A stretch of 64,000 nt of DNA from a virus (IMGVR_UViG_3300042567_001420); one strand, 5' to 3'. Shown: positions 7,899-51,948, numbered from the stretch's first letter. Notes: generated by a model not told the origin, from the sequence alone. Made by a program: numbers and translations.

Positions 7899-9035
7899 TT
7901 AATCACTGATGGCCATGGTGTGTTGACCACCTGCATCAACCGTTGACCAAGTTGTTAAAGCGCCAACCTGTACTGGACTAGATACATATACAGTTGCGCT
8001 ATTACCTATACCTAATCGACCGGAGCTGCTGTTACCCCACGCCCACATGGTTCCATCTGTTTTAATAGCCATGTTGTGATAACTACCTGAAGCAATATTT
8101 AACCAATTAGTTAATGCGCCAACCTGTTTTGGGCTTGAATAGTTTGTGGTATTGCCTAATCCTAATTGCCCATTTGAATTGCGACCACCCAATCCCCACA
8201 TGGTACCATCTGTTTTAATGGCCATGCTATGATAACTACCTGAAGCAATTGTTAACCAAGTTGTTAGGGCACCAACCTGTACAGGACTAGATCTATATGT
8301 TAGATTGCCTAATCCTAATTGCCCATGTGGATTCATACCCCACGACCACATGGTACCATCGGTTTTGATGGCCAAGCTGTGATTATAACCTGCAGAAATT
8401 CGTAACCAAGTAGTTAAAGCACCAATCTGTACTGGACTAGATATATTTGTAGTATTTCCTAGACCCAGTTGTCCCTGTGCATTATATCCCCACGACCACA
8501 TAGTACCATCTGTTTTGACGGCCATGCTGTATTGAAAACCTGCATCAATTTTTGACCATGTGGTTAATGCACCAACCTGTACTGGACTAGATATATTTGT
8601 AGTATTTCCTAGACCTAATTTACCGCTGCTACCATTACCCCATGACCACATGGTGCCATCTGTTTTAATAGCCATGCTATGATAAGTGCCTCCAGCAATA
8701 CTTGACCAAGTTGTTAGGGCACCAACCTGTACTGGACTAGATATATCTGTAGTATTACCTAAACCTAATTGGCCGTTTCCGCCTGAACCCCATGACCACA
8801 AGGTACCATCTGTTTTGACTGCCATGGTGTGCTGGCTACCAGCAAAAACTGTTGACCATGTACCTAAAGCACCAACCTGTACTGGACTAGATATATCTGT
8901 AGTATTACCTAAACCCAATCTGCCATAGCTATTTCTACCCCATGACCACAAGTAAAATTCTGGTACAGGAACCGGAGGATCCCATGTCTGCACATTCATT
9001 CCACCAAGAGCAAAGTTAACATTTGTAATTTGCAT
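7899..9035 (-). CDS. RCC1/BLIP-II 7-blade beta-propeller protein (orphan copy)
   Basis: Seven ~50-aa repeats W(S/A)WGxNxxGxLGLGNTTxxSSPVQVGALTTW...AIKTDGT. Confidence 0.9.
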   Translation of the reverse strand: MQITNVNFALGGMNVQTWDPPVPVPEFYLWSWGRNSYGRLGLGNTTDISSPVQVGALGTWSTVFAGSQHTMAVKTDGTLWSWGSGGNGQLGLGNTTDISSPVQVGALTTWSSIAGGTYHSMAIKTDGTMWSWGNGSSGKLGLGNTTNISSPVQVGALTTWSKIDAGFQYSMAVKTDGTMWSWGYNAQGQLGLGNTTNISSPVQIGALTTWLRISAGYNHSLAIKTDGTMWSWGMNPHGQLGLGNLTYRSSPVQVGALTTWLTIASGSYHSMAIKTDGTMWGLGGRNSNGQLGLGNTTNYSSPKQVGALTNWLNIASGSYHNMAIKTDGTMWAWGNSSSGRLGIGNSATVYVSSPVQVGALTTWSTVDAGGQHTMAISD

Positions 9036-9047
9036 TTTAATTCTTTC

Positions 9048-9944
9048 TTATACGTTTGCTGTGTTTGTTGATGGGAATGCTCGACCGGATCCCCAAATAA
9101 TTCTTACTGCTCCAGTACCACCAGGGCCCGAGAAGTTAGGTCCATCTGTTGCGCCACCTGCACCCACTACCACAGTATAACTTTGACCTGGCACAACTTC
9201 AATATTATTTTTCCAACCAAGGCCACCGCCGCCGCCATTGATAGTATAGGTGCCTGAGCCACCACCACCATAGAAACCGCCAATCCCGCCATTAGTACCC
9301 GAACCATTTGGATATTGTACACCATTACCACCACCTGATCCGCCTCTAGCAAAACCGCTACCATTTACTGAACCAAGTGGCGACCCTATACCGCTTGTGC
9401 CTTGACCTAAGATGCCAACACCGCCTCCAGGTCCCCAAACACCTCCACCACCTCCACCGCCTTGGCCATCGCCACCTGCAATAGTAGCAGTAGGTGCGGC
9501 CGTACCTTTACCCGCATCGCCACCGTTTCCTGAATATCCGCCAGCGCCACCGCCACCATAAAAATCAGTACCTGACCCATTATAGCTATTACCACCATTG
9601 CCACCACCGTCACCTACATAACCACCACCAAAACCATAACCGGCACGCAGAGTACCCACTGCGCCACTATAAGCTCCGCCTCGACCACCGCCTAATCCTG
9701 CCACTGTTACTTGGCTTATAAAATAACTATTGCCGCCATTGGTCACACTTGCTGCAGTACTTGAAGAACGACACCCGCCACCCCCGCCACCAACCGCCAC
9801 AACTGCGACGCTATATACTCCAGGTGGGGCAGTCCAACTGAATGTGCCTGCAGTAGTAAATTGAGCTTGACCTGGCGGAGTCGGAGGAGGCGGAGTAGTA
9901 ATAATTTGCATTCCGCCCAATAACTCTAATCCCGATAATCGCAT
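9048..9944 (-). CDS. Glycine-rich putative adhesin/virion protein
   Basis: Short anchor + PPPPTPP; FTTAGTFSWTAP, VAVVAVGGGGGG, many GGxGG motifs, GAVRIIWG. Confidence 0.8.
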   Translation of the reverse strand: MRLSGLELLGGMQIITTPPPPTPPGQAQFTTAGTFSWTAPPGVYSVAVVAVGGGGGGCRSSSTAASVTNGGNSYFISQVTVAGLGGGRGGAYSGAVGTLRAGYGFGGGYVGDGGGNGGNSYNGSGTDFYGGGGAGGYSGNGGDAGKGTAAPTATIAGGDGQGGGGGGGVWGPGGGVGILGQGTSGIGSPLGSVNGSGFARGGSGGGNGVQYPNGSGTNGGIGGFYGGGGSGTYTINGGGGGLGWKNNIEVVPGQSYTVVVGAGGATDGPNFSGPGGTGAVRIIWGSGRAFPSTNTANV

Positions 9945-9945
9945 C

Positions 9946-10347
9946 TTATACCTTTAAATTCTTGATATGAGTTTTATGTACGCGGCATTGCACTTGGCCG
10001 TTGTAATAATCTTCTGTTTCTAAAACTCGTCTATCCATTTGTTCTCTTGCTTCTAAATAATTGCACAAACCTTTGTTTGGGCATATATGCAGTATCTCTC
10101 GTATAAACTTATCCGCACCATGCGTTTCAACATCAGCTTTAACTTCATCAGATGAAGACCAATAATCCCTCCAATCTGACTCAACCTTTAATCTTTTCTT
10201 CTTACCCTTAACTACCTTTGTTCTGCGAAACCAAAACAACTTTTTACCTATATACTTGCGATTCGTGGCAGTATTGGTAATCAAGTACACGTAACCATAC
10301 GCGTCGTCTGGAATAAGTTCTAAAGGGTTTCCGTTATATAGCCACAT
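9946..10347 (-). CDS. GIY-YIG family endonuclease
   Basis: YGYVYLITN...KYIGKK motif, DYWSSS, YYNG; a type common in T4-like phages. Confidence 0.85.
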   Translation of the reverse strand: MWLYNGNPLELIPDDAYGYVYLITNTATNRKYIGKKLFWFRRTKVVKGKKKRLKVESDWRDYWSSSDEVKADVETHGADKFIREILHICPNKGLCNYLEAREQMDRRVLETEDYYNGQVQCRVHKTHIKNLKV

Positions 10348-10369
10348 CTAAATACCAATATTAAATTAG

Positions 10370-10377
10370 TATTTATA
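10370..10377 (-). promoter_or_regulatory. T4-type late promoter TATAAATA
   Basis: Exact motif 22 nt upstream of the GIY-YIG start; could also drive the Gly-rich and RCC1 pair. Confidence 0.7.
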
Positions 10378-10732
10378 CGGTTTCCCAATAGTCGTTTCCG
10401 TCTGAAAAGTTATCACCATCATCCCTAGGTGGAACAAAGAAGTAATCGTCGGGATTTGTCATTATATCTTCGGCGTCTTCAGCTAATCCGCCGGTTCCCA
10501 TGATGCCGGCTCGTTGCAGCATTTGGGTTTGTATAGATTTCTTATATCTATGCTCTTCAGATTCTTCGCGTGCCATGTATGCCGCTTGCTTTTCTGAAAA
10601 GACTTTCTTTTGTTCCGCATTCCATTGTCTGGAATTGGCACAGGCGCGAGAACAGAACTTACCTGGTTTGGTATGCTCTGTGCTGCACTTAGGACAAGTC
10701 TTCGTCTTCGTACTCATCCTGTTGGTCTGCAT
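10373..10732 (-). CDS. Hypothetical protein with N-terminal Zn-ribbon (CPKC..FCSRAC)
   Basis: Four-Cys motif like the N-terminal modules of phage HNH proteins; no HNH core seen. Confidence 0.6.
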   Translation of the reverse strand: MQTNRMSTKTKTCPKCSTEHTKPGKFCSRACANSRQWNAEQKKVFSEKQAAYMAREESEEHRYKKSIQTQMLQRAGIMGTGGLAEDAEDIMTNPDDYFFVPPRDDGDNFSDGNDYWETV

Positions 10733-10795
10733 CCATATGTGCTCCGCAGAATGGACAAAACTCTACTTTATAATAGTCTTCGTCAAGATCAAAAT

Positions 10796-11290
10796 TTATC
10801 TTGAAGACGCCATCACATTCGACACATTCGTGGTGTTGTTTTCTTGCCATGATAATCCTCTCTTTTTAGTTTCTGCATCAAACACTCGTTGACGCAGGTC
10901 AGATGAACTAAAGAAATGATCTCGTTTATTGAAATACAATTCTATTCCTCTTTTCAAGCAAATGTCCTTGCCTGTATATTCTGTATCTTTATATTCTTCA
11001 CCTAAGATTCTTACATCAATTGGCAATGCCATAAAGATATCCTCGAGCTCTTTCTCCGTTGAATATACTATAATCTCATCAACATGCTTGCATGATGATA
11101 CCTGAATTTGTCTCTCAATGATTGACTGCACAGGTCTGTTTTTAGATTTTCTATCTATTGTGGGATCGATTTGAATCGCAGCAATTAGATAATCGCATTG
11201 ACGCTTTGCCTCTTCCAACATAATCACATGACCTGCATGGAACAGATCAAATGTGGAACACGTAATTCCAATTTTTTTGTTTACACTCAT
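10796..11290 (-). CDS. Cytidylyltransferase, TagD/glycerol-3-phosphate CTase-like
   Basis: FDLFHAGH (HIGH motif), RPVQSI.ER, RDHFFSSSDLR. Confidence 0.85.
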   Translation of the reverse strand: MSVNKKIGITCSTFDLFHAGHVIMLEEAKRQCDYLIAAIQIDPTIDRKSKNRPVQSIIERQIQVSSCKHVDEIIVYSTEKELEDIFMALPIDVRILGEEYKDTEYTGKDICLKRGIELYFNKRDHFFSSSDLRQRVFDAETKKRGLSWQENNTTNVSNVMASSR

Positions 11291-11757
11291 ATTTTCTCCA
11301 CTTCAATGTTACACTTATTTAAAAATTCTATACCTTCATCGCTTCTATATTGATTGCGATAAAACACTTTTTTAATCCCTGCTATATGTATAAGTTTAGC
11401 ACATTCAAAGCAAGGTGCATGAGTGATATACATCGTAGCCCCTGCACCTGATTCATTTGATTGTGCCAACTTGCCAATAGCATTCATTTCAGCATGAATA
11501 ACTTCTTTCTTTGTTTCATACTTATATGTTCCCATGGTATGCCATGGACCACCTTCGTCAATTATATATTGCGATTCTTCATATACTTCATTCTCACAAT
11601 TATTATCCCAGCCCCTGGGTGTGCCGTTATAACCGATAGATATAATTCTGTTATCTTTCTCAACAACAGCACCAACCTTTAATCGTTTAGCCGATGACAA
11701 TGTAGAATACGCCTCAGCAACAATCATATGCGTATTATCAAATTTACTCATTTCCAA
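11287..11757 (-). CDS. cd: dCMP deaminase
   Basis: IISIGYNGTP, HAEMNAI and PCFECAK zinc motifs. Confidence 0.92.
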   Translation of the reverse strand: MEMSKFDNTHMIVAEAYSTLSSAKRLKVGAVVEKDNRIISIGYNGTPRGWDNNCENEVYEESQYIIDEGGPWHTMGTYKYETKKEVIHAEMNAIGKLAQSNESGAGATMYITHAPCFECAKLIHIAGIKKVFYRNQYRSDEGIEFLNKCNIEVEKI

Positions 11758-12386
11758 CTCACCATTTTAAATCTTTCCTTAGGTACACCAAAGTATTTAC
11801 ATTTCCAATCACTTTGAGCAAAAAAGTCTAAATGATACCATTCATCTTTATGCTTAAGTATTTCTTTAGCAGCATTATCCCAATCTATAGTTGCAAACTC
11901 TGCTTGTACTAACAATTTACAGGCTTGCACTTCTTCACAATCAAACCCATCATATTCCCAATGTAATACTTCAAAGCAATTGCCGTGCCTATCAACATAA
12001 TCCATAGAGAAATCTAATCCCCATTTTGGACGTAATGATATAACTTTATGCACTAAAGGTAATTGTTTTGCCCAATATGTTAGTTCAGCTAATGCTTCAC
12101 CTTCATACCCTTTTCGTTCAAATAACAAACTATGGTTTAGAACTGCACCTTCTATCTTAGGATATTGTGTAAACCAATCTTCTTTTAATGCTGAACGATG
12201 TGGTCTATGTTTTTTATCTTTTTGCCTATTACTATAAGCATAATGTCTTTCCAATTCAGTTAGATCATAACCATTTTGGTCAAACAGTTCCACATCTTCC
12301 GGTGTGGGTGTGTATAATATTTTATCAATGGGTTTAGACCAATAACCATTTGTGTTAAAAGAATTATTGGTTAATTCAATTTTCAT
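11748..12386 (-). CDS. Conserved phage hypothetical protein
   Basis: 212-aa ORF; KWGLDFSMDY motif; no function assigned. Confidence 0.7.
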   Translation of the reverse strand: MKIELTNNSFNTNGYWSKPIDKILYTPTPEDVELFDQNGYDLTELERHYAYSNRQKDKKHRPHRSALKEDWFTQYPKIEGAVLNHSLLFERKGYEGEALAELTYWAKQLPLVHKVISLRPKWGLDFSMDYVDRHGNCFEVLHWEYDGFDCEEVQACKLLVQAEFATIDWDNAAKEILKHKDEWYHLDFFAQSDWKCKYFGVPKERFKMVSWK

Positions 12387-22038: not shown

Positions 22039-22938
22039 TCATAACTTAGTTAATCGCACTGCACCCTGCGCCCAGGTTGTTACCAACGTGCCAGTATTTT
22101 CTCTCACAATATTAGATGCGATTGGATTAACATAAGAATTGGGTGAGCTGGTATTTAAACTATCGTATCCACCTGCAGGACCAACCGAATCATCTGTACC
22201 ATTTCCACCACCGAACCCACCATATGTGGTTTGGTTGTTATACCCTGCTCCCGTGCCATTTATACTTTGATTTTTCCAATTAGTATTGAATCCTGTTCCG
22301 ACTGTTCCATCTGCTGAGCTTGAAGCAGTTGCAGGAGTTGAAAATCTTCCTTCACGTTGTCCTAGACCGCCAGCTGCAACTAATAATGCTGTCATATCAC
22401 CAGCTGAAAAGGTCGAACTTCCGCTAGATGATTTTGCAACAACAGTAAATCCTCCGCCAGCCCCGCCCGCAAAATCCAAGCTACCCGAATTTCCACTTGC
22501 GCCCGCGCCTCCTATTGTTATCCAAAGTACATCTCCAGAGTTTAACGTAAAATCTCCTTGTACCGCAGATCCTACGACAGACGGTTTATCAGTCGGTCCC
22601 CCGGATCCACCTTGCGATTTTATACGCCAGGTACCGGTTTCTGGAATTGTAAAATATATGTAACCAGCCGCGGAAGGTATTTTAATATATGTGGCAGCAA
22701 CCATTGCATCATATGCTCCGGTTTGAGATGTTGAATTAAAATACCCATATATCTCTGCAGCAGTTTGTCCGGAAATAGGAGTAGTATCATTTGGACCGGA
22801 AGTTGTCCTACTTGAAGATACTGTTATTGGACTAGAATAAACGTATAAACCTGAGGGTGCAGGTGCTCCTGGCGGAGGCGTCTCACCGGAGGTTATTCTT
22901 CCGGAAAAACTAACATTATTTAAAGTAAATCTTGCCAT
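22039..22938 (-). CDS. Glycine-rich putative adhesin/virion protein
   Basis: Anchor-like N-terminus + PPP; FTIPETGTW.I...GGSGG; GGFGGG motifs; GAVRLTKL end. Confidence 0.75.
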   Translation of the reverse strand: MARFTLNNVSFSGRITSGETPPPGAPAPSGLYVYSSPITVSSSRTTSGPNDTTPISGQTAAEIYGYFNSTSQTGAYDAMVAATYIKIPSAAGYIYFTIPETGTWRIKSQGGSGGPTDKPSVVGSAVQGDFTLNSGDVLWITIGGAGASGNSGSLDFAGGAGGGFTVVAKSSSGSSTFSAGDMTALLVAAGGLGQREGRFSTPATASSSADGTVGTGFNTNWKNQSINGTGAGYNNQTTYGGFGGGNGTDDSVGPAGGYDSLNTSSPNSYVNPIASNIVRENTGTLVTTWAQGAVRLTKL

Positions 22939-23405: not shown

Positions 23406-23413
23406 TATTTATA
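23406..23413 (-). promoter_or_regulatory. T4-type late promoter TATAAATA
   Basis: Exact intergenic motif upstream of 23380. Confidence 0.75.
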
Positions 23414-37995: not shown

Positions 37996-38052
37996 AAAAT
38001 CACCTAATTATTGTGGTATATACTAATATTTTATCGGATTTAAGATATTTTG

Positions 38053-38829: not shown

Positions 38830-39371
38830 TCTTTAATTACCTTCAATTTAATATTAACTTCCATGATAATGTTATTGTGTTCTTGCACATATCTTTCAAC
38901 TTCTTCTTCGGGTCTGCCGTTGAATATTTTATAATATCTTTGATCAGGAATATTTTCCACTTCTGCAAGCTCAAAGTCTACATTGTAATAATGCGCCAAT
39001 CTAGAAGCAGATTCTCCTCGTTGTTTGCATAGATCATTGTATTTTTTACTAAAAAGCCCTAATCCTTCAGCAGTTATTGGTCTACGATGTGTTGGATCAT
39101 TTGCAAAATATTCATGTCTATGATGTGGTACTACAATATCAATTATAGCATCATGCTTACAAACACGATATAGTTCTTTGATTGCGTGAAAATACCCTTC
39201 GCCCATGTGCTCTAACACATGATGCGCAATTACTTCTTCTACGGAGTTATCTTCAAACGGCCATGTGTCGTTTTCGAGATCAAATTTAAAATCAGGATTA
39301 CAATTATCATCGTAATCACAATTTAAAAATCCATCATATTGTTTATCACCTGCTCCAATATTTAATTTCAT
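38826..39371 (-). CDS. SAM-dependent methyltransferase (type 11-like)
   Basis: KLNIGAG, DL...WPFEDNSVEEVIAHHVLEH, DPTH. Confidence 0.85.
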   Translation of the reverse strand: MKLNIGAGDKQYDGFLNCDYDDNCNPDFKFDLENDTWPFEDNSVEEVIAHHVLEHMGEGYFHAIKELYRVCKHDAIIDIVVPHHRHEYFANDPTHRRPITAEGLGLFSKKYNDLCKQRGESASRLAHYYNVDFELAEVENIPDQRYYKIFNGRPEEEVERYVQEHNNIIMEVNIKLKVIKE

Positions 39372-39386
39372 AATATTTCCAATAAT

Positions 39387-39878
39387 TTACTTTTCTATTA
39401 ATCTAAAAATTTGCACAATTCCACTATCAAATGAATGGAATAACCAAGGCCTGAAAAATACAGCTTGCCCCGGTTTCAACTGATGGTTAACCATTAGATC
39501 CCATTCAAATAAATTTCTATAATTGTGTTGGTATCCGTCTAATGCAGTTAATGCGCCGGATTTGTGTTCAAAGATGTTAAATGTAGATTGATCTATTGCG
39601 ACTACAAGTAACCATTCCTTTAAAGAATCAAATCCTTCGAAGTGTATCAGTAATTCGGGGAATCGAAACACGCCCGACTTTTCTCTATCAACTGTAACAT
39701 CTTTACCAAGTACGGTTGAGAATAGTTTATCTGCGTCTGCAGGGATGTGATTGAAATTTAATATTTCTTTACCAAACTCAGTTGATTGAAAGTTTAAACC
39801 TCTAACCACATTATGTAAATTGGTTGCGCTTTCTACATTATAAAATTCATCAACCGTCATTGTTTTAATTAATGCCAT
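39387..39878 (-). CDS. Degenerate DUF6445-like 2OG-Fe(II) oxygenase paralog
   Basis: VDEFYN, IHFEG, FRPWLFHS parallel the 34843 gene; the RLT segment is absent. Confidence 0.6.
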   Translation of the reverse strand: MALIKTMTVDEFYNVESATNLHNVVRGLNFQSTEFGKEILNFNHIPADADKLFSTVLGKDVTVDREKSGVFRFPELLIHFEGFDSLKEWLLVVAIDQSTFNIFEHKSGALTALDGYQHNYRNLFEWDLMVNHQLKPGQAVFFRPWLFHSFDSGIVQIFRLIEK

Positions 39879-39912
39879 ACTAAAATATTCCCGTTATAAT
39901 TTAATTATATAT

Positions 39913-39920
39913 TATTTATC
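39913..39920 (-). promoter_or_regulatory. Late promoter variant GATAAATA
   Basis: One mismatch; lies at the head of the modification-enzyme block. Confidence 0.5.
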
Positions 39921-41112
39921 ATCCTAATCCTATACTATGGCTGTATCCAGTAGCTACAGTAAGCCAATTTGTTAAGGATCCGACCTGGTTTGGCTCACTT
40001 CTACCAAAAGTATCTCCAAGACCAAGTTTACCGTTAAAGTTATCTCCCCAAGACCACAATGTACCGTCGGTTTTAGTTATTATGCACTGAGTGTTCAAAG
40101 CTCCAGTCCCAGCATTTGACCAAGTTGTTAATGCACCAACTTGTTTTGGACTAGAATAACTTGTGGTATTACCTAAACCCAATTGTCCAGATGATCCTCT
40201 ACCCCATGTCCACAATGTACCATCAGTTTTAATTGCCGCGCAGCTATTATACATCGCACGAATTTTTGACCAATTTGTTAATGCCCCAATTTGTACTGGG
40301 CTTGAAAAGTATGTAATATTACTTAGACCTAATTGACCATAACCATTATTTCCCCAGCTCCACATAGTACCATCAGTTTTAATAGCAATCGAAAAATTGG
40401 ATTGTCCCCCGCAACTACCACGTGCCCAAGTTGTTAATGCACCAATCTGTACTGGACTAGATCTATGCGCAGTATCGCCTAGTCCTAATTTGCCATGATG
40501 GTTCGCGCCCCATGACCACATAGTACCATCTGTTTTAATGGCTATGGAGTGATCAACACCGGAGGAAACACTTGACCAATTTGTTAATGCCCCAATTTGT
40601 ACTGGACTAGATATATTTGTAGTATTACCTAAACCAAGCTGACCTAAGTTATTTTTACCCCACGACCAAATAGTACCATCTGTTTTGATGGCCATGCTGC
40701 AACCGAAGCCTGAACTAACACGAGACCAAGTGGTTAATGCACCAATCTGCACTGGACTAGATCTATTTGTAGTATCACCTAAGCCCAATACGCCTTGATA
40801 ATTTTCACCCCATGCCCATAAGGTGCCGTCGGTTTTAATTGCTTGACTATTTGAGTATCCTGCACCTACAACAGACCAATTCAAAGACCCAACTTGTTTT
40901 GGACTTGAATAATTTGTCGTATTGCCTATACCTATTTGACCACTGCTACCGCTCCCCCATGAATATATTTTATATACTACCGGAGGCGCAGGCCAAATGC
41001 CTGCTCGTTTTGCCTGCATTTGATCTGCAGGATTAAAAATTCCAGAAGCAGATGAAGTATTAACTACTGTGGGTGTTGCAGATATTAATCCGCCGTAATA
41101 CTTTTTAACCAT
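39919..41112 (-). CDS. RCC1/BLIP-II beta-propeller protein, YYGGLISAT-type N-terminus
   Basis: Seven repeats after a 40-aa leader ending WPAPP. Confidence 0.9.
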   Translation of the reverse strand: MVKKYYGGLISATPTVVNTSSASGIFNPADQMQAKRAGIWPAPPVVYKIYSWGSGSSGQIGIGNTTNYSSPKQVGSLNWSVVGAGYSNSQAIKTDGTLWAWGENYQGVLGLGDTTNRSSPVQIGALTTWSRVSSGFGCSMAIKTDGTIWSWGKNNLGQLGLGNTTNISSPVQIGALTNWSSVSSGVDHSIAIKTDGTMWSWGANHHGKLGLGDTAHRSSPVQIGALTTWARGSCGGQSNFSIAIKTDGTMWSWGNNGYGQLGLSNITYFSSPVQIGALTNWSKIRAMYNSCAAIKTDGTLWTWGRGSSGQLGLGNTTSYSSPKQVGALTTWSNAGTGALNTQCIITKTDGTLWSWGDNFNGKLGLGDTFGRSEPNQVGSLTNWLTVATGYSHSIGLG

Positions 41113-41130
41113 ATTAATTTATATTGTTAT

Positions 41131-42342
41131 TTATTGCTTAGTAGCCAACACGAATCGATGGGAATTTCCTGCAACAACATCTATCCAGGTAGTCAACGAT
41201 CCAACTTGATTTGGACTAGTATTATTAAAAATATAGCCTTGTGCCAGGACTCCACCCTGATCACTTCCCCATGCCCATAATGTACCATTTGTTTTAATTG
41301 CGGTGGTGAAATAATTACCTGCAGAAACTTTTAACCAATTAGTTAAAGCTCCAACTTGGTTCCAAACGTATGTACTCGAAGTTCCGTTATTTCCCAGTTC
41401 TCCATATGAATTCTGGCCAATAGTCCATAATGTACCATCAGTTTTAGTTGCTGCATTGTGGTTGCGGTTAGCAGCAACCGACGCCCAATTTGTGCCTGAG
41501 CCAACTTGTGTTGGCTCAGATCTTTTTACAGTATCCCCAAATCCTAATCTGCCCTGAAAACCACTTCCATTAGTCCCCCAGGCATACAACGTACCATCTG
41601 TTTTAATTGCAAAACTTGTATTATAACCTGCAGAAATCTTTAGCCAAGTGGTTAGAGCACCAATCTGTTTTGGACTCGAATATGCTGTAGTATTACCTAA
41701 ACCCAATTGACCGTCATTAGCAGATCCCCAACTCCACAATGTACCATCGGTTTTAACTGCCAAACAATGAAATTGAACAACTGAAGTAGTTTTCCAATTG
41801 GTTAAAGCGCCAATTTGTTTAGGAGAAGAATAATAAGTACTATTACCTAGACCCAGTACTCCGGCGTTATTAGCACCACAACTCCACATCGTGCCATCGG
41901 TTTTAACTGCAATAAAGCATTGTAAACCTGCGCTAACACTTTCCCAATTAGCTAATGCACCTACTTGCGTTGGACTAGAAACTGGTGTGGTATTACCAAG
42001 ACCCAAACGACCATACCCATTTCTTCCCCAGGCCCAAAATGTTCCGTCAGTTTTAATAGAATATCCTGAGTGTCCTCCGGCTGCTATAGTTTTCCAATTG
42101 GTTAAAGATCCAACTTGTTTAGGTGAGGAATAAAGGTTAGTATTACCTAAGCCAAGGTTACCATATGAATTTTGCCCCCAAGACCAAAGATTGTATGGGA
42201 TAGGAGGTGCTGCAGGCGTAGGCCAATTGCCTGCTCGTTTTGCCTGCATTTGTTGAGTAGGATTGAATATTCCAGAAGCGGATGAAGTATTAACTACCGT
42301 TTTGGTGGCAGATATTAGTCCTCCATAATACCTTCTTTTCAT
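41131..42342 (-). CDS. RCC1/BLIP-II beta-propeller protein, YYGGLISAT-type N-terminus
   Basis: Seven repeats after a near-identical leader ending WPTPAAPP. Confidence 0.9.
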   Translation of the reverse strand: MKRRYYGGLISATKTVVNTSSASGIFNPTQQMQAKRAGNWPTPAAPPIPYNLWSWGQNSYGNLGLGNTNLYSSPKQVGSLTNWKTIAAGGHSGYSIKTDGTFWAWGRNGYGRLGLGNTTPVSSPTQVGALANWESVSAGLQCFIAVKTDGTMWSCGANNAGVLGLGNSTYYSSPKQIGALTNWKTTSVVQFHCLAVKTDGTLWSWGSANDGQLGLGNTTAYSSPKQIGALTTWLKISAGYNTSFAIKTDGTLYAWGTNGSGFQGRLGFGDTVKRSEPTQVGSGTNWASVAANRNHNAATKTDGTLWTIGQNSYGELGNNGTSSTYVWNQVGALTNWLKVSAGNYFTTAIKTNGTLWAWGSDQGGVLAQGYIFNNTSPNQVGSLTTWIDVVAGNSHRFVLATKQ

Positions 42343-42343
42343 A

Positions 42344-42715
42344 TTAGCTTATATCCTCATAACTGCAAGTTACGTGAAGAACATTTCCAGTATCTGCAGT
42401 TGCCCCTAAACTTGTATTTTCTTCCAAGTAATATTGACTGCTTTTATCTATAACATTTAATGTACTGTTTCCAGGAACCGTTGTCCGGCCAACAATATTA
42501 AATGCATTGCCACTCAAGCTAGCTGCAGAATAATAACTTATTGTTACATTTGCAGACGTTGAAGTGTAATTTGAAACGTTCAATACATTTATCTTTAAAC
42601 ATTTGCCAGAACTAGCGGCATTGTTTAGTATAGAAGTTGCAGTTATAGTTGTTAAGTTTGCTCCCGCTGTTTTACCATTGATTATTGTTGCGCCGATTAT
42701 GTTTGGTGCTGCCAT
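42344..42715 (-). CDS. Small fiber-associated protein (~120-aa paralog family)
   Basis: LNVSN.T...ANVTI, VP..STL.V, YLEE..SL, LHVTCSYEDIS; follows fiber 42717. Confidence 0.7.
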   Translation of the reverse strand: MAAPNIIGATIINGKTAGANLTTITATSILNNAASSGKCLKINVLNVSNYTSTSANVTISYYSAASLSGNAFNIVGRTTVPGNSTLNVIDKSSQYYLEENTSLGATADTGNVLHVTCSYEDIS

Positions 42716-45700: not shown

Positions 45701-48080
45701 AATTGCCATTAACAAATACATTTGAAGATGTTAAGTTTAAATTACCAGCTGCGCTTAATAATATATTGCTTGTGGATGTAAGTTCTGCAGAGCCTGAGCC
45801 GGTTGCAATAAATGTATTTGCTACAATATTGCCTGACACCAACACATTGGTTGTTGTTAAATTAATTGCACCTGCCGCAGTAATATTCAAATTGCCGGTA
45901 GATGTTATTGTTGCCGCTATTGCAGTAGGTGACAGAATTGTATTTGCAATTACATTACCTGCACTAATGTTACCGGTGTATGTTGTTAGGAATGAAGCAA
46001 CATTGGCATTGGCAAATGATGATGCAGGTGCTGCCCAAAATAAGTTGCCTGTACCATTTGTTTGTAGTACATAACCATTAATGCCATCGGTATGTGGCCA
46101 TGCCTGCCCATCTAATAAAATTCTGCCATTACCTGCCGCAGATAATTCTATGTTGGAATTTGAAGTGGTTGCAATTGTCAATACACCAACATTATCTATT
46201 ATTCCACCTGTCAATATTAAATTACCTGCAGCAAGATTGCCGGTGTATGTTGATAGGAATGATGCAACATTGGCGTTACTAAAACTACCACTTACCGGAT
46301 TTGCCGCAAGGTAAGCAGTAATATTTGATAAAACTCTGGCATTGGTATAGAAAATGCTATTGCCGGATTCAATTACGTTGGCCGTATATAGATTCAACCA
46401 AGTTGTTGCAGAAATATTACCCGCACTAATTAAATTGGCGCCTGTAAACGAACCACCGGAACCACTGCCTGTTATAATGTTATTGGCAACAATATTGCCC
46501 GATGCAATAACATTCGGAGATGTCAAATTAATTGCACCTAACGCAGTAATATTCAAATTACCTGTTGATGTTATTGTTGCAGCTATTGCTGTAGGTGAAA
46601 TAATTGTATTGGCAATAACATTGCCTGCAGTAATATTACCGGTGTATGTTGTTAGAAACGCACCTACATTTGCGTTACCATATGTACTAATTGCGGGATT
46701 TGCTGCCAAATATGCAATAACATTTGATACTACTCTGGCGTTGGTGTAATATAAATTGTTTAATTCCGCAACATTGGCTGTGGTTAAATCTACTACATTG
46801 GCTTTTAATCTTAAATTAGACTCAACTTGAGCATTAACTCTGGCATTTGTATAGAATAGATTGTTTGTACCTTCAGTAATACCATTTGTATTGCCTGAGA
46901 ATGATGATGCACCTACTCCCGTTAGAGAAGAACCATCACCAAAGAATTTTGTTGCGATTACATTACCAGATGCAATAACATTGCCGGAATTTAATGTAAT
47001 ATTTCCAGTGCCCGTGATATTAACATTACCGGTAGAAGATAATGTAGCAGAGCCTGTACCTACTGATATAAATGTATTTGCAATTAAATTACCGCTTGCA
47101 ATAACATTTGTGGAATTGATATTGACTGCACCTGCGGCAGTCATTGTAATGTTTCCAGTAGATGTAATCAACCCAGCAGATGCGCTTGCTGATATAAATC
47201 CATTTGCTATTACATTACCAGTAACATTTAGATTGCCTGTGATATTATTAACATTTACGGAAACGCCAGTCAAATTAGCAGAGATTTGACCATTAGCAGC
47301 GATAATAATGTTATTACCCTGTAATGACGGCATTAATGCTATAACATTGGATGCTACTCTGGCATTTGTATAGTATAAATTATTACCTTCAGCAACATTG
47401 GCAGTTGTTAAATCAACTACATTGGCCTTGGCAGCCAATAATGATACCACATTGGCAAAAACTCTGGCATTGGTAAAATAAAGATTACTTGCAGATTCTG
47501 TTACATTTGCAGTAAAAATTCCAGAATAACTATTTGCTGTTAAAGGTCCGTTAACAACAATACTTGATCCAGTTAAAGTAACGACGCCGGTTGCGGATAT
47601 TGATACGTTGCCGGTGGATGATAATAATCCAGAGCCTGGGCCGGTTGATATAAAAGTGTTGGCAATAACATTGCCAGTTGCGATAACATTTGTAGAGTTG
47701 ATATTGACTGCACCCGCAGCAGTCATGGTGATGTTGCCAGAGGATGAAATTAAGCCAGCAGAAGCACTTGTGGAAACGAAACCATTGGCAATTACATTGC
47801 CGCTAACATTCAAGTTGCCAGTAACAGAAGAAACACTTACCGCAGACAGGTTTGCTGAAATAAGACCATTTGCTGCAATAGAGATATTATCGCCGGCAAC
47901 AAGAGCGCCGATTGCCCTGGCGTTACTGAAATATACATTACCAGAACTTGTGTTTCCCGATTCAATAACATTACCGGTAAATATACTTTGGAAGGAAACA
48001 TTGCCGGTGTTGGCACCCAGCAATTGGCCGTTACTTCCTCCATTTCCACTGATTAAACTTACATCTATTTTGCGAGCCAT
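42717..48080 (-). CDS. Giant Asn/Thr/Gly-rich tail fiber (1787 aa)
   Basis: Repeated NLYYTNARV and FLTTYTGNISAGNV units; hydrophobic end AAVGYSLIFGG. Confidence 0.85.
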   Translation of the reverse strand: MARKIDVSLISGNGGSNGQLLGANTGNVSFQSIFTGNVIESGNTSSGNVYFSNARAIGALVAGDNISIAANGLISANLSAVSVSSVTGNLNVSGNVIANGFVSTSASAGLISSSGNITMTAAGAVNINSTNVIATGNVIANTFISTGPGSGLLSSTGNVSISATGVVTLTGSSIVVNGPLTANSYSGIFTANVTESASNLYFTNARVFANVVSLLAAKANVVDLTTANVAEGNNLYYTNARVASNVIALMPSLQGNNIIIAANGQISANLTGVSVNVNNITGNLNVTGNVIANGFISASASAGLITSTGNITMTAAGAVNINSTNVIASGNLIANTFISVGTGSATLSSTGNVNITGTGNITLNSGNVIASGNVIATKFFGDGSSLTGVGASSFSGNTNGITEGTNNLFYTNARVNAQVESNLRLKANVVDLTTANVAELNNLYYTNARVVSNVIAYLAANPAISTYGNANVGAFLTTYTGNITAGNVIANTIISPTAIAATITSTGNLNITALGAINLTSPNVIASGNIVANNIITGSGSGGSFTGANLISAGNISATTWLNLYTANVIESGNSIFYTNARVLSNITAYLAANPVSGSFSNANVASFLSTYTGNLAAGNLILTGGIIDNVGVLTIATTSNSNIELSAAGNGRILLDGQAWPHTDGINGYVLQTNGTGNLFWAAPASSFANANVASFLTTYTGNISAGNVIANTILSPTAIAATITSTGNLNITAAGAINLTTTNVLVSGNIVANTFIATGSGSAELTSTSNILLSAAGNLNLTSSNVFVNGNLVLRGALSGLTLTTSSIAEGSNLYYTNARVYSNVISALSALSTSNIAEGSNLYYTNARVVSNVIAYLAANPATVSFGNANVSSFLTTYTGNLSAGNVIANSFVSPTATSATLTSTGNLNITAAGTINLTTPNVLVSGNVVANNFISTGAGSGEVASTSNLLLSAAGNLNLTSSNVFVNGNLVLRGGITGLTLTTSSIAEGSNLYYTNARVLSNIEAALPTYTGNIAAGNLILTGGIIDNVGVLSISTTGNSNIELVANGTGRIILDGQAWPKTDGVTGYILQTNGTGNLFWAAPTASSSFSNANVASFLTTYTGNLSAGNIISNSFVSPTATSATLTSTGNLNITAVGTINLTTPNVLVSGNIVANTFISAGAGSGEIVSTSNLLLSAAGNLNLTAPNVFVNGNLVLRGGLTGLTLTTSSIAEGSNLYYTNARVYSNVIGVLSSYALTANLNTANVNENAASGNLYYTNARVLSNVTAYLTANPIISNFGNANVGAFLTTYTGNINAGNVIANTVISPFATSGTLNSTGNLNIVSGDTINLTANTVLASGNIVANTFTATGTGSAELSTSSNLLLSATGNLNLAGGNIFVNSPITFRGTVTGIASASVTQANLTTANVTELNNLYYTNARVVSNVIAYLAANPQGGTYGNANVAAYLLTNPTSGSYSNANVSAFLTTYTGNISAGNVIANTVISPSATSGTLNSTGNLNIIAQNNTINLTASNVLASGNIIANTFIATGTGSAELSTSSNLLLSATGNLNLAGGNIFVNSPITFRGTVTGISAGGSVTQANLTTANVAELASSGNLYYTNARVVSNVIAYLAANPQGSQFANANVAAFLITYTGNINTGNVIANAFYANGTGAAGGTIFSAGNVNITSGGNIILATGANSSVVTLSSGNTAGIINGFGDLTISTSGNILLSPQSTGRVQASTPIRFANYSNTNALATALQGDTVYNTTANALVVYTSSGWTTVGSGGAGGSAAAAVGYSLIFGG

Positions 48081-48108
48081 CTCTTGACCTTTTTATTGTT
48101 ATCTACTA

Positions 48109-48116
48109 TATTTATT
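48109..48116 (-). promoter_or_regulatory. Late promoter variant AATAAATA
   Basis: Intergenic, 28 nt upstream of the fiber start. Confidence 0.5.
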
Positions 48117-48133
48117 GCCAACGATTATTCTAC

Positions 48134-49126
48134 TTAAAACGTAATGGATCCTGAACTGGTCCATTGATATATTCTATATCCGCCGGATACTATTACGTTA
48201 GGTGACCCTGTTGTACTTGTTGCTGATGAAAATGTATCTGCATAGCGGATGATTACAGTACCAGAACCTCCGGAACCAGCTATACCAGTTGTCCATCCTA
48301 AACCTCCACCACCACCGCCGGTATTTACGTTGCCAGATGTTGCACTTGCTGTTCCACTAGCCGCCATAACGCCTGCACCACCACCTCCGGAACCACCATT
48401 TCCAGCAGTAGAGCCACCTTCACCGCCACCGCCACCGCCACCAGCATAATAAGTTGCAGTCCCGGTAATAGAACTAACTGCACCAATGCCGCCATTGCCA
48501 CCTGTTCCCGGAGAAGTACCATTTCCGTTTGCACCGACACCTCCCGCTCCGCCACCGCCACCAGCAACATAAATTGTATTAGGACTAGTTCCGCGTGTTC
48601 CCGAACCACCATTATTACCTTGTCCTGCAGTACCTGTTCCACCAGCAATAGTTGTAAAAGAAGCAGCAGAAGAACCACCGCCACCAGAACCGCCATTAGC
48701 GCCAACTGAAACATATGCGCCACCACCGCCGCCGCCTATTGCTGTTACCGTAGTAAATCCAGAACCAGATATACTTGAGTTAGCACCAGAAGCGGCTCGA
48801 TTATTTGTTTGAGTTTGTGTTCCTTGTATTCCAACACCACCTGCGCCAACTGTTATTGTGTATGTAACACTAACGGCTACGTTTGCCGTATTAGTTAGTA
48901 ATCCACCTGCTCCGCCGCCGCCTCCGTCTGCTGAACCTCCTGCTCCTCCGCCAGCAACTACTAGATATTCTACCGTTGAAGTTGGAACAGGTGGCGGGGG
49001 CGGTTCTCCTGCAACTAAAATATTAACACTGACTTTTTGTCTTGCAATGGCACGAAAATTGTTCGCAGATGCAGAAAACTTTTGTGTAGTACTAACTTTT
49101 GCAGCACTATACTTCCGTAAGGTCAT
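48134..49126 (-). CDS. Glycine-rich putative adhesin with distinct basic N-terminus
   Basis: MTLRKYS leader, EPPPPPVP linker, VEYLVVAGGG, GGYRIYQWTSSGSITF. Confidence 0.8.
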   Translation of the reverse strand: MTLRKYSAAKVSTTQKFSASANNFRAIARQKVSVNILVAGEPPPPPVPTSTVEYLVVAGGGAGGSADGGGGGAGGLLTNTANVAVSVTYTITVGAGGVGIQGTQTQTNNRAASGANSSISGSGFTTVTAIGGGGGGAYVSVGANGGSGGGGSSAASFTTIAGGTGTAGQGNNGGSGTRGTSPNTIYVAGGGGGAGGVGANGNGTSPGTGGNGGIGAVSSITGTATYYAGGGGGGGEGGSTAGNGGSGGGGAGVMAASGTASATSGNVNTGGGGGGLGWTTGIAGSGGSGTVIIRYADTFSSATSTTGSPNVIVSGGYRIYQWTSSGSITF

Positions 49127-49455
49127 TAGGTAACCTCAGTGCCGAACAGATTAAAACTAATATTTGTGGTATTTGCATATACTGTTACAACGTCTGTGGC
49201 AGCCAATGTTACACCGATTGTTAGCGATATTGAATCCAAAGCAGGAACAGTTGCATCAAAGGCAATATAATGTTTGTTTGCCAGCGTTTCACCTGCAGGT
49301 CTTACTGCAATGCGATATGCTGCTGCACTGGCATTTTGATTACAAACTGATATTGTAGAAGTAACTGCACTTGTGCCCGACGGAACAGTATACAGTGTAT
49401 TTGCTGTACCTGCTGAAGGACTGATCTGTCCCAATACTTTATATGTTATCGCCAT
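49126..49455 (-). CDS. Small fiber-associated protein (~110-aa paralog family)
   Basis: YKVLGQ..P......TLYTVP...AV.STISVCN...GVTLAATDVVTV...FGTE. Confidence 0.72.
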   Translation of the reverse strand: MAITYKVLGQISPSAGTANTLYTVPSGTSAVTSTISVCNQNASAAAYRIAVRPAGETLANKHYIAFDATVPALDSISLTIGVTLAATDVVTVYANTTNISFNLFGTEVT

Positions 49456-49464
49456 TTTTATCTC

Positions 49465-49824
49465 TTATTCTGTTGTTGTAACAACTTCTACCCAATTTTG
49501 AACTTCTTCGTTCCATGCATAAATTTTATCATCATCTGGTTTTGCTATAGGTGCTTCCCATAAGCAAGTATTTTCATTTAATACCCAAGAATTAAATGGT
49601 GTTGGTGGTATAAATGCATCTCTTGTTGCATCATACCTATAACCAATACCAGCATAATTTTTTCGTAATGGAGTACCCCCATTGATGTGAACGCCTGCAT
49701 GAGTGTTATAGCTTGTTTGTACCCAGCTTGCGGGATCACCAAACAAACCAGTATCAATTACATCTTGCTCGACAACGATAACCTGTGTAACGATACCGTT
49801 TTCTACTTTTGCGAAATGGCTCAT
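49465..49824 (-). CDS. Conserved tail-associated hypothetical protein
   Basis: MSHFAKVENGIVTQVIV, WVQTSYN, RKNYAGIGY.YD...DAFIPP, WEAP motifs; usually found next to Gly-rich genes. Confidence 0.75.
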   Translation of the reverse strand: MSHFAKVENGIVTQVIVVEQDVIDTGLFGDPASWVQTSYNTHAGVHINGGTPLRKNYAGIGYRYDATRDAFIPPTPFNSWVLNENTCLWEAPIAKPDDDKIYAWNEEVQNWVEVVTTTE

Positions 49825-49848
49825 TTTAAAAAACTCCTATTTTCCTGT

Positions 49849-49856
49849 TATTTATC
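49849..49856 (-). promoter_or_regulatory. Late promoter variant GATAAATA
   Basis: One mismatch; upstream of 49824. Confidence 0.45.
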
Positions 49857-50814
49857 AGAATGTTATTGAACCGGATGAGGTAAATTGATATATTCTATAT
49901 CCGCCAGATACTGTTACGTTAGGTGAACCTGTTGTAGCTGTTGCTGCATTATATGTATCTGCATAGCGAAGGATTACAATTCCAGAACCACCAGCACCGC
50001 CAGAAAATCTTGATCCTGAATAAGCACCGCCACCACCACCCCCACCTCCAGAATTAGTGCCGCCGGCGCCACCGGCGCCACCGGTTGTTCCACTTGCTCC
50101 TCCGTTACTTCCGCCTGCACCGGATAATCCTGAACCAGAAGAACCTCCCCCACCTCCCCCCCCACCGCCGCCGCCGCCAGCAGAAAGTCTATAACCGCTA
50201 CCGCCACCGCCGCCAGCATAATATGTTGCAGTTCCGGAAATATCAGTTGATGTACCGGAACCGCCGGTACCGCCAGTAGGGGATGCACTTGCAGGCCCCG
50301 CATTACCTCCAACAGTATTAGAGCCACCTCCACCTCCACCAGCACCATCGATAGAACCATTTAATCCACCTCCACCATTATTGCCTTGACTAGGTGATGT
50401 TGATGGCGTGTTTCCTGCACCGCCTGTTGTTGGTATAGTAGGAGATAAACCGTAACCTGTACCACCACCGGATCCACCAGAAGCGCCATTTAATCCAACT
50501 GAGGTAGTTCCATAACCCCCGCCAGTTGAGGTAATATCTCCAAATACAGAATTTGATCCCGAAATACCGTTGCCTCCGCCAGAGCCACCGGACCCACCAC
50601 CGCCAACGGTAACAGTAATAGCAGAACCAGATGTTACAGAGTAACCAGCCGCAGTTCTGTACCCACCAGCACCGCCACCGCCACCATCAGAGCCACCACC
50701 ACCTCCACCAGCAACTACTAGATATTCAACTGTTGGGGTAGGAGAAGGAGGAGGCGGAGTAATTGTTAGGGCTACCCCTGATCCGATTGAGATACCATTG
50801 AATGAAATTGCCAT
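49855..50814 (-). CDS. Glycine-rich putative adhesin
   Basis: MAISFNG anchor + PPPPSPTP; same core and C-terminus as 32331 and 48134. Confidence 0.8.
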   Translation of the reverse strand: MAISFNGISIGSGVALTITPPPPSPTPTVEYLVVAGGGGGGSDGGGGGAGGYRTAAGYSVTSGSAITVTVGGGGSGGSGGGNGISGSNSVFGDITSTGGGYGTTSVGLNGASGGSGGGTGYGLSPTIPTTGGAGNTPSTSPSQGNNGGGGLNGSIDGAGGGGGGSNTVGGNAGPASASPTGGTGGSGTSTDISGTATYYAGGGGGSGYRLSAGGGGGGGGGGGGSSGSGLSGAGGSNGGASGTTGGAGGAGGTNSGGGGGGGGAYSGSRFSGGAGGSGIVILRYADTYNAATATTGSPNVTVSGGYRIYQFTSSGSITF

Positions 50815-50829
50815 TTTTTTACTTTTAAT

Positions 50830-51948
50830 TTATGACGAGATTGCAGTTGAATGTCTATATCCTGCAGAAACATTCAACCAATTAGTTAAAGCACCAATTT
50901 GTACTGGACTAGATCTATTTGTGGTATTACCTTGACCTAATTGACCGTAGCTATTACCGCCCCATGACCACAGTGTACCGTCGGTTTTAACTGCCGTAGT
51001 ATGGAATTGTCCCGCATCAATTTTTGACCAAGTAGTCAATGCTCCAACTTGTACAGGGCTAAATATATCAGTAGTATTACCTAAACCCAATCGGCCTGTC
51101 TCGCCTGAACCCCAAGCCCATAATGTACCATCTGTTTTAATGGCTACATTATGCTGATATGCTGCTTCTATAATTGACCAATTGGTCAACGCACCAACTT
51201 GTGCTGGACTAGAACCACCGCCCGATCCTCCATCTTGTCCTGCATTGTTTCTACCCCAAGCCCACAATGTACCATTGGTTTTAATGGCAATCGTATGATG
51301 GTCTCCGCTAGTACAGCGCAACCAATTATTTAATGCGCCAACTTGCACAGGACTAGATCTATAAAATGTATTGCCCTGGCCCAACTGCCCATAAAAATTA
51401 TTTCCCCATGACCACAGGGTACCATCGGTTTTTACGGCAAACGACGATGAACCGCCGGTGCCAATACTCGCCCACGTGGTTAATGCGCCAACTTGTTTGG
51501 GACTTGAATATGCTGTAGTATTACCGAAGCCAAGTTGTCCCGAGCCATTGGTTCCCCATGCCCACATGGTGCCATCTGTTTTTATAGCCAAACTATGCTC
51601 GCGGCCGCTGGCCAGACTACTCCAACCGGTTAATGCGCCAACTTGTACTGGACTAGATCTTGCGGTTGTAGTATTATCCCCCAATTGTCCACTGGCGTTA
51701 TTACCCCAACTCCATAATGTACCATCTGTTTTTATAGCTGTATTATGATACCCACCGCCAGCAACACTTAACCAATTACCCAGGGCACCAATTTGCGTGG
51801 GGCTCGATCTATTTGTGGTATCTCCCACGCCCAATCTCCCGTGGTAATTTACTCCCCATGACCATAAGTAAAATTCTGGTGGCGGAGGCAGATCAGGTGT
51901 CTCGTATGAAAATGTTCCACCAAATGTTAGATTTTGAAATGTGATCAT
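50830..51948 (-). CDS. RCC1/BLIP-II beta-propeller protein
   Basis: Seven repeats; MITFQN anchor + PPPPEF. Confidence 0.9.
   Translation of the reverse strand: MITFQNLTFGGTFSYETPDLPPPPEFYLWSWGVNYHGRLGVGDTTNRSSPTQIGALGNWLSVAGGGYHNTAIKTDGTLWSWGNNASGQLGDNTTTARSSPVQVGALTGWSSLASGREHSLAIKTDGTMWAWGTNGSGQLGFGNTTAYSSPKQVGALTTWASIGTGGSSSFAVKTDGTLWSWGNNFYGQLGQGNTFYRSSPVQVGALNNWLRCTSGDHHTIAIKTNGTLWAWGRNNAGQDGGSGGGSSPAQVGALTNWSIIEAAYQHNVAIKTDGTLWAWGSGETGRLGLGNTTDIFSPVQVGALTTWSKIDAGQFHTTAVKTDGTLWSWGGNSYGQLGQGNTTNRSSPVQIGALTNWLNVSAGYRHSTAISS

Follow-up and report, generated by a model that had tools for sequence, protein, structure and literature searches.

A 64,000-nucleotide (nt) stretch of DNA from an uncultured virus (IMGVR_UViG_3300042567_001420), here called the window and used as a whole for the numbering of gene coordinates, carries 14 minus-strand genes that open with a Gly-punctuated beta-type peptide of 15-21 residues, pass through a proline run and end in domains of unrelated fold. 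The peptide and its Pro run are termed the class A anchor, and the C-terminal domain is termed the head. Each of the 14 genes probably encodes a two-part virion adhesin, consisting of a docking peptide and an interchangeable head. Sequence comparison with relatives strongly supports the arrangement that underlies this reading, a portable N-terminal module carrying interchangeable heads.

The anchor is built of alternating hydrophobic and polar residues, with Gly near positions 7 and 12 and the Pro run at residues 15-21. It follows the pattern M-A-(F/L/I/V)-T-(F/L/I)-S-G, h-x-h-x-G, x-h-x-h, then prolines. An earlier description of the window made by a model from its letters (the sequence-only reading) had listed 14 genes with a common N-terminal peptide and a Pro-rich linker, ten with RCC1 propeller heads and four with Gly-rich heads. 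All 14 are present on the minus strand and begin as described, and the RCC1 assignment is solid for all ten, both by Pfam and by mutual alignment at 53-61% identity. The Gly-rich assignment stands for g32331 and g49855, which are clear members of Gly_rich_2; g9048 scores below the family threshold, and g22039 is instead ALK/LTK-GRD-like. One gene start is revised: the gene placed at 27756..28937 almost certainly begins at an internal ATG, position 28883 (MAFTFSG...), and with this start its 41-nt overlap with the gene upstream disappears. The genes are as follows.

33226..34368, minus strand: slot 1, class A anchor MALTISGFTITGNLNAVHI followed by PPPPPP, seven-bladed RCC1 head (Pfam RCC1, E 2e-78)
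32331..33209, minus strand: slot 2, class A anchor MALTISGVRINGALTAVHI followed by PTPPVTP, Gly_rich_2 head with TNF-like domain and polyglycine lattice (Pfam, E 3e-20)
31195..32301, minus strand: slot 3, short class A anchor MDLIGITILGGVNIQ followed by PPPPPP, RCC1 head (RCC1 alignment)
30043-31176, 28897-30027, 27756-28883, 26580-27728, 25442-26563 and 24278-25429, minus strand: slots 4-9, six genes with class A anchor and RCC1 head
50830..51948, minus strand: class A anchor MITFQNLTFGGTFSYETPDL followed by PPPP, RCC1 head (Pfam), directly downstream of the jelly-roll gene 51958-52287
49855..50814, minus strand: class A anchor MAISFNGISIGSGVALTIT followed by PPPPSPTP, Gly_rich_2 head (Pfam, E 3e-11)
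7899..9035, minus strand: outlying gene with class A anchor and RCC1 head (Pfam RCC1, E 4.5e-87)
9048..9944, minus strand: short anchor MRLSGLELLGGMQIITT followed by PPPPTPP, Gly-rich head of the subtype 'FT..G...W.AP.GV..V.V...GGGG' (phrog_4474, E 5e-29)
22039..22938, minus strand: weakly anchor-like N-terminus MARFTLNNVSFSGRITSGET followed by PPPGAPAP, ALK/LTK-GRD-like Gly-rich head (Pfam ALK_LTK_GRD, E 1e-3)

The evidence that carries the modular reading comes from syntenic relatives, which were found through exact-protein look-ups of close homologs: L139-L141 come from lake metagenomes, and a 211-kb assembly supplied L137/L138. Their flanking proteins are 97-100% identical to those of the window, and their giant fibres 94-95%. 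Slot by slot, the anchors are 79-100% identical in amino acids (aa) and 85-100% identical over the first 60 nt. The heads behind these kept anchors are 54-62% identical, i.e. no closer than any two paralogs. Thus the anchor of slot 1 (g33226) is fully conserved in L139 in front of a head that is 59% identical, and in slots 4-9 the orthologous L139 anchors are 79-95% identical and the heads 58-60%. In L137, the gene corresponding to g50830 has a 100% identical anchor and a 54% identical head. In three slots the fold itself is exchanged. The slot of the Gly-rich g32331 holds an RCC1 propeller in L139, L141 and L244, and the same anchor is found on RCC1 heads in L255 and L268 too. Likewise, the slot of the Gly-rich g49855 holds an RCC1 propeller in L137, and the metagenome proteins P0007 and P0118 also bear this anchor on RCC1. 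A third head type occupies the slot of the RCC1 gene g31195 in L139, where the same anchor precedes a 234-aa Lcl_C/DUF1566-like head and nucleotide homology is confined to window positions 32312-32243; a search for other head types behind the anchor, proposed with the sequence-only reading, has its positive outcome in this gene.

The boundaries of the exchanged segments are sharp. Over ten orthologous slot pairs, mean nucleotide identity is 0.96-0.98 for nt 0-44 and 0.91 for nt 45-59, drops to 0.54 in the Pro run (nt 60-74) and beyond nt 74 lies at about 0.3, the background of this ungapped comparison. Upstream of -15, in the end of the preceding variable head, it is 0.45-0.55. Each anchor therefore defines a conserved island, made of the ribosome-binding site and the anchor, between variable cassettes. 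An 88.8% high-scoring segment pair with L141 is long and runs through a non-orthologous RCC1 head (62% protein identity), so it is informative only at its end, which is the g32331 Pro run. Among metagenome proteins, one anchor occurs on up to four distinct heads, two folds included. The converse exchange is seen in P0004, in which the g33226 head follows an anchor known from a different slot; overall identity is 86%, and the changeover falls exactly at PPPPPPIYYLWSFG, which both proteins share. Because the same anchor is found with different heads and the same head with a different anchor, heads and anchors reassort both ways at the proline joint. The claim that heads of unrelated fold are interchangeable is thereby borne out, with breakpoints at the Pro run.

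Since the ten RCC1 genes are paralogs, their common N-terminus is trivial, and the comparison across folds is the meaningful test of anchor similarity. A hidden Markov model (HMM) was trained on the RCC1 anchors only, all ten trimmed of the Pro run, and every 25-mer of the window that starts with ATG (766 in all) was scored with it. The anchors of g49855 (E 7e-4) and g32331 (E 1e-3) rank right behind the training set; that of g7899 scores 31 bits, but is itself a training member. In the reciprocal direction, an HMM of Gly-rich-borne anchors from other contigs retrieves the window RCC1 anchors g50830 (E 1.6e-3), g30043 (E 8e-3) and g31195 (E 0.02). By these profiles, cross-fold anchor similarity is modest but reproducible in both directions. 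A lack of mutual similarity had been named in advance as an outcome that would refute the common anchor; by the anchor HMM, the similarity is significant for g49855 and g32331 and weak for g9048 and g22039. The neighbours g33226 (RCC1) and g32331 (Gly-rich) do share MALTISG, as the sequence-only reading had it, and all six of its degenerate codons (6/6) differ synonymously at the third base. This shows selection on the peptide itself and not recent gene conversion or copied DNA.

Outside the window, the anchor profile produced only chance-level matches among all PDB sequences (E above 1), and a degenerate DNA pattern for MAFTFSG gave 54 matches in IMG/VR, about the estimated chance number, of which essentially none are real. 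A gapped pattern that includes the Pro run matched once in IMG/VR and 58 times in the JGI metagenomes. About 14 of these are genuine class A genes, all with RCC1 heads save one Gly-rich, and no further head type came up with this pattern in either database. Within the window, a 475-aa fn3-containing protein (20566-21993) opens with MSLQITSSNISITGKAQL, which is weakly anchor-like (E 0.1) and has no Pro run; judged by these residues, its gene may be a 15th, degenerate anchor member.

The RCC1 heads contain seven RCC1 repeats (six in g50830), with Pfam E-values of 1e-62 to 1e-87 in the genes tested (PF00415, PF25390) and WD40_RLD scores of 228-361 bits against a cut-off of 150. For Gly_rich_2 (PF21722; cut-off 24.3 bits), g32331 (73.6), g49855 (44.1) and g48134 (80.9) pass and g9048 (21.3) falls below. 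Membership of g22039 in this family was ruled out by hhalign, and the protein resembles viral ALK/LTK-GRD proteins (atlas neighbours at 0.95).

The Gly-rich head has the fold of a fibre tip. The AlphaFold2 (AF2) model of g32331 has a confidence (pLDDT) of 89; residues 1-20, at 63-66, are predicted as a short hairpin, and the structural matches all start at residue 23-25, which places the anchor outside the head fold. The head matches the tail-tip Gly-rich protein of mycobacteriophage Bxb1 (9D93_Qb) with Z 13.9 and gp24, the tail fibre of freshwater cyanophage Pam3 (7YPX_A), with Z 12.7, a root-mean-square deviation of 3.1 Å over 168 residues and 30% identity. Matches to ALK/LTK GRDs are far below these (Z 5-6). 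The N-terminal alpha-helical docking domain of the Pam3 type was not found in g32331, where the 20-aa peptide and the Pro run precede the head and the model has no helix. Among the structural matches listed for g32331, gp38 is absent; a polyglycine-type head is present and a gp38-like attachment domain is not.

Class A does not stand alone: of the short N-terminal classes, A, B, D and SGxWxL are all found on RCC1 as well as on Gly-rich heads. Three more head genes of the window carry other N-terminal modules, namely the RCC1 genes g39919 and g41131 and the Gly-rich gene g48134.

39919..42342, minus strand: two RCC1 genes with a 45-aa class D N-terminal module (M.K.YYGGLISAT...SASGIFNP..QMQAKRAG.WP.PP)
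48134..49126, minus strand: Gly_rich_2 head behind a class E N-terminal module of 45 aa, then PPPPP (Pfam, E 1.8e-22)

In L137 the g48134 head is 63% identical between neighbouring genes that are 100% identical. The class D module also heads Gly-rich proteins in metagenomes, e.g. P0281 and P0346. Modules of this kind, 40-50 aa long with the motif SASG(I/V)(W/F)..(Q)......G.WP.PP, are widespread: many aquatic phage contigs encode RCC1 and Gly-rich proteins that begin with one, among them the metagenome proteins P0061, P0081, P0281 and P0346. In the protein search, phage RCC1 proteins most often began with its shorter form, YSGIWTLQQV.AAIAAGTWP. In L278, a small GGY..Y.FTSSG.F hairpin sits between the anchor and the Gly-rich domain. 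At the opposite end, the last ~45 residues of the Gly-rich heads (GSGIVIIRY ... GGYRIYKWTSSGSITF; in g32331, 32331-32470) are 70-80% identical in >100 viral contigs (loci L002-L081), and the rest varies. In other phages, RCC1 and Gly-rich heads are fused to fibre shafts, TIG, fn3 and collagen-like segments or a 110-aa jelly-roll domain.

The head genes lie among structural genes, some of which are candidates for the docking partner or for assembly factors.

42717-48080, 52298-57046, 57378-59924, 59954-63841 and beyond, minus strand: giant fibre and baseplate-type genes framing the heads (PHROGs)
51958..52287, minus strand: 109-aa single jelly-roll protein, candidate adaptor (AF2 pLDDT 95, eight strands)
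49465..49824, minus strand: 119-aa phrog_7759 protein, candidate fibre chaperone (phrog_7759, E 5e-34)
34389..34775, minus strand: 128-aa conserved protein heading the 10-gene array (95 homologous viral loci)

PHROGs assigned to the framing genes are tail fiber protein (E 2.6e-83), baseplate wedge subunit, baseplate wedge tail fiber connector and structural protein; the second and third are matched by g57378 and g59954, and the greater part of the baseplate module falls beyond the window. The RCC1 proteins nearest to those of the window belong to freshwater cyanomyophages (e.g. S-SRM01), in which their genes stand beside baseplate-wedge and long-tail-fibre genes. Megablast of window positions 30000-42000 and tblastn of the Gly-rich head, both against GenBank phages, gave no match.

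The jelly-roll protein is one of four paralogs of 109-123 aa in the window (51958-52287, 49126-49455, 42344-42715 and 57039-57374). The gene that follows immediately downstream has a different N-terminal module in each case, namely class A, class E, class D and that of a giant fibre. The start of g48134 overlaps the stop of the jelly-roll gene 49126-49455, and this overlap is kept in L137 and L136. By Foldseek, the matches of g51958 are viral jelly rolls, one of them the trimeric cement protein KHP40, with a TM-score of about 0.5. The family numbers 2149 representatives at 50% identity, has no Pfam family and mostly stands alone; elsewhere its members are fused N-terminally, through a short Pro-containing linker, to Gly-rich, TIG+RCC1 or collagen-like parts. 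Tandem doubles of about 215-230 aa also occur. Complex prediction with three copies of the g51958 jelly roll and three of the 32-aa g49855 anchor scored 0.01 against a mark of 0.32, a result that says nothing either way on binding. A related arrangement is found in L053 (IMGVR_UViG_3300034082_002205), where eight consecutive Gly-rich genes at 2233-11888, three of the eight with two Gly-rich domains, each open with a 15-aa MII.SG....G.GV-type anchor; the row is flanked by a giant repeat-rich fibre gene on one side and nrdA/nrdB on the other.

The phrog_7759 protein (116-119 aa, MSHFAKVENGIVTQVIV...) always follows the Gly-rich/RCC1 genes of its sub-cluster, in L053 (11939-12289), L137 (12303-12656) and the window, and by analogy may be a chaperone comparable to Pam3 gp25. 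A Tfa-like chaperone gene, g20026, is located near the array. As a possible socket, g34389 was rejected: its homologs sit before or after RCC1 genes and occur with other anchor classes, with no specific tie to class A. In the 95 viral loci they are always beside RCC1, sulfotransferase and APS-kinase genes. RCC1 genes themselves are repeatedly found beside two sulfotransferase genes and one APS-kinase gene, in the window (23426-24217, 35459-37995) and, across several types of phage, in about 95 viral contigs (loci L142-L221); this conserved sulfation module could have the virion, the heads or a host glycan as its substrate. A T4-late-promoter-like TATAAATA is located at 34810-34817 on the minus strand, about 35 nt upstream of g34389, and another at 23406-23413 on the same strand, upstream of g22940, in a window where the motif is not enriched (9 found vs 10 expected). 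Directly downstream of the outlying head pair 7899-9944 is a SegE-like GIY-YIG homing endonuclease gene (9946-10347; Pfam E 1.4e-37), a location compatible with mobile-element-assisted gene exchange.

The model that probably accounts for these observations divides each protein into three working parts. Residues 1 to about 20 would form an amphipathic, Gly-punctuated peptide of beta-hairpin type, separate from the head and not folding alone, which would dock by adding a beta-strand to some structural protein in the fibre or baseplate apparatus. One or more sockets could be provided by the jelly-roll adaptor, by the fibre shaft or tip, or by a baseplate protein encoded outside the window. The Pro run would serve both as a stiff polyproline spacer and as the recombination joint for exchange of C-terminal heads; together, the 20-aa peptide and the spacer would replace a docking domain of the Pam3 type. 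The heads, i.e. the seven-bladed RCC1 propellers, the TNF-like and polyglycine Gly-rich domains and, in relatives, the Lcl_C-like domain, would be the host-facing parts and presumably bind ligands such as host glycans. With anchors held constant and heads reassorted among co-circulating phages, a large, population-wide adhesin library would be displayed on one invariant scaffold.

Several points weigh against this model. The phage is uncultured, and it is only by inference that the proteins are placed in its virion. Paralogous anchors share about 30-48% identity, so that a single socket, as the sequence-only reading had envisaged, is not implied. Two of the 14 anchors are statistically weak with the RCC1-anchor HMM, that of g9048 at rank 16 (E 0.39) and that of g22039 outside the top 30. 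In L053, eight class-A-like Gly-rich genes come right after a giant fibre with no jelly-roll gene in the 16 kb covered, and by hhalign the probability of a hidden jelly roll at the C-terminal end of this fibre is below 1%; the jelly-roll adaptor idea is therefore not general. The C-terminal end of g52298 likewise gave a probability below 1%. Finally, in many other phage contigs the RCC1 genes belong to the sulfotransferase/APS-kinase module and have no obvious fibre genes nearby, so that a non-structural role is conceivable for some RCC1 proteins.

Alternatively, the peptide could be an oligomerisation or assembly tag, either a foldon-like hairpin that trimerises the heads or a tag for a chaperone (g49465, g34389 or the Tfa-like g20026), with virion attachment through another surface. 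The predicted short hairpin would suit such a role, small chaperone-like genes accompany the arrays, and Pam3 gp24, to which the Gly-rich head is related and whose structure is solved, forms a trimer and needs a chaperone of its own for assembly. However, the compact heads are preceded by about 20 residues and a spacer, with no other attachment element visible, and RCC1 propellers are normally monomeric. That three unrelated folds bear one tag is easier to reconcile with an external partner common to all than with assembly specific to each fold, and we consider this alternative unlikely.

It is also quite improbable that the proteins are not part of the virion at all, acting instead as soluble late decoys or binders of host envelope or debris, or as partners of sulfation enzymes, with the peptide targeting or regulating them in the infected cell. 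This alternative draws on the RCC1 genes that adjoin sulfotransferase/APS-kinase genes in the window and in about 95 other viral loci. Read directly, however, the peptide has no signal-peptide or membrane-anchor character, the head families occur at fibre tips or fused to fibre modules, and a hypervariable head behind a constant N-terminus is the signature of a receptor-binding protein (RBP); moreover, virions of phAPEC6 contain analogous array proteins of RCC1 type. Least credible is that the island is kept for a nucleic-acid function (translation initiation, or a homology arm for cassette exchange) with no role for the encoded peptide: conservation from -15 to +60 does include the ribosome-binding region, and the island does bound exchanged cassettes, but paralogous anchors keep their residue pattern with different codons (MALTISG, 6/6 synonymous), and distant anchors, in L053 and in metagenome proteins, keep the hydrophobic/Gly periodicity and the Pro run on unrelated DNA. 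Two further roles for the peptide were rejected: that of a Velcro strand of the propeller, because it also precedes non-propeller heads and the Pro run separates it from the head, and that of a T4 capsid-targeting sequence, because on reading it has no L/I-x-E cleavage motif.

The two-part adhesin reading is best placed beside systems that share parts of its design. Tail fibre and tailspike mosaicism, as in CBA120 TSP1-4, RaK2/phiK64-1 and SP6/K1-5, combines conserved N-terminal attachment with exchanged C-terminal specificity and several RBPs per virion. The anchors of those spikes are folded domains of 100-300 aa on trimeric proteins, whereas those of the window have about 20 aa and carry small single-domain heads of three or four unrelated folds. 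In gp38, the monomeric fibre-tip adhesin of T-even phages and S16, an N-terminal domain of about 90 aa binds the gp37 tip and is followed by a polyglycine sandwich with hypervariable loops. The sequence-only reading had offered T-even gp38 as a precedent; it is only a loose one, linked indirectly through the Pam3 paper (PMC9608196), and closer precedents are Pam3 gp24 for the fold, KP32 RBP2 for the mechanism and the MLPF-tag arrays of jumbo coliphages.

The docking-peptide principle is already known from RBP2 of Klebsiella phage KP32, which the virion no longer uses once a conserved 29-aa peptide is deleted; a foreign head can also be mounted on this peptide (PMC13352976). In the branched RBP systems of the podophages KP32, K11 and KP34, the secondary RBP, RBP2, is modular, with a short N-terminal peptide conserved among RBPs that have different C-terminal domains (PMC13352976), and the window anchors are likewise short N-terminal peptides conserved in proteins that otherwise differ. 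There is, however, no sequence similarity between the two, and KP32-type phages have one RBP2 each as against the 14 genes here. KP32 heads are trimeric beta-helix depolymerases instead of propellers or Gly-rich domains, no Pro-run joint is present, and the socket is the T4gp10-like branching domain of RBP1, whereas the window offers candidate sockets.

For Pam3, receptor recognition is ascribed to the fibre tip, made up of the TNF-like and Gly-rich domains of gp24; docking to the baseplate falls to a helical domain set apart at the N-terminus (PMC9608196). Gp24 (PDB 7YPX/7YFW) and the Bxb1 tail tip (9D93, chains Qa/Qb) share the TNF-like and polyglycine-lattice fold with the Gly-rich heads at 30-33% identity over about 170 residues. 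Gp24 differs in being single-copy and in having an alpha-helical docking domain of 95 residues, where the proteins of the window have a 20-aa beta-type peptide and a Pro run that also carry RCC1. Short N-terminal beta-segments of Gly, Ser and aliphatic residues anchor accessory fibres to the baseplate in the cryo-electron microscopy structure of mycobacteriophage Mysterious (preprint, PMC13252515).

Jumbo coliphages of the phAPEC6/121Q group resemble the window in architecture only, with an RCC1 array and a Gly-rich protein under one short N-terminal tag. In fEgEco12, the tandem RCC1 propellers and an interspersed Gly-rich protein all have the 12-aa tag MLPFxRMxKYGN, and in phAPEC6, RCC1-like array proteins were detected in virions by mass spectrometry (PMC7247149). 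This tag was not found in the window anchors, which differ from it in sequence and length and have in addition the Pro run. The jumbo phages also belong to another lineage and habitat, their tag has no Pro spacer, and their array has been interpreted in print as serving DNA condensation; head swapping at the joint has been shown for the system of the window, not for the jumbo arrays. We found no paper describing the system of the window. It is set apart from the jumbo arrays by its plug of beta-type peptide and polyproline, by its lineage, by its gene number (14 plus 3) and by the two-way exchange of heads demonstrated at the joint.

More tentatively, the same design may extend to freshwater T4-like phages and, more widely, to aquatic phages. 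These could hold a combinatorial kit of short plugs (A, B, D, E, SGxWxL) and jelly-roll adaptors carrying several adhesin folds (RCC1, Gly-rich, Lcl_C-like), so that one virion would present a dozen or more heads on giant fibres in a 'bottle-brush' or multi-tip arrangement, and plug-proline joints would act as recombination sites that reshuffle heads gene by gene. We regard this wider scheme as possible, though doubtful.

If the anchor is a true plug, it would be a minimal attachment module of about 25 residues, comprising 20 aa and the polyproline spacer. RCC1 propellers, which are routinely annotated as 'chromosome condensation regulators' in phage genomes, would then be host-binding heads. 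The hypervariable islands of abundant lake phages would be explained as cassette exchange at defined joints, and the KP32 docking peptide, the Pam3 Gly-rich tip and the RCC1 arrays of jumbo phages would be joined in one design principle.

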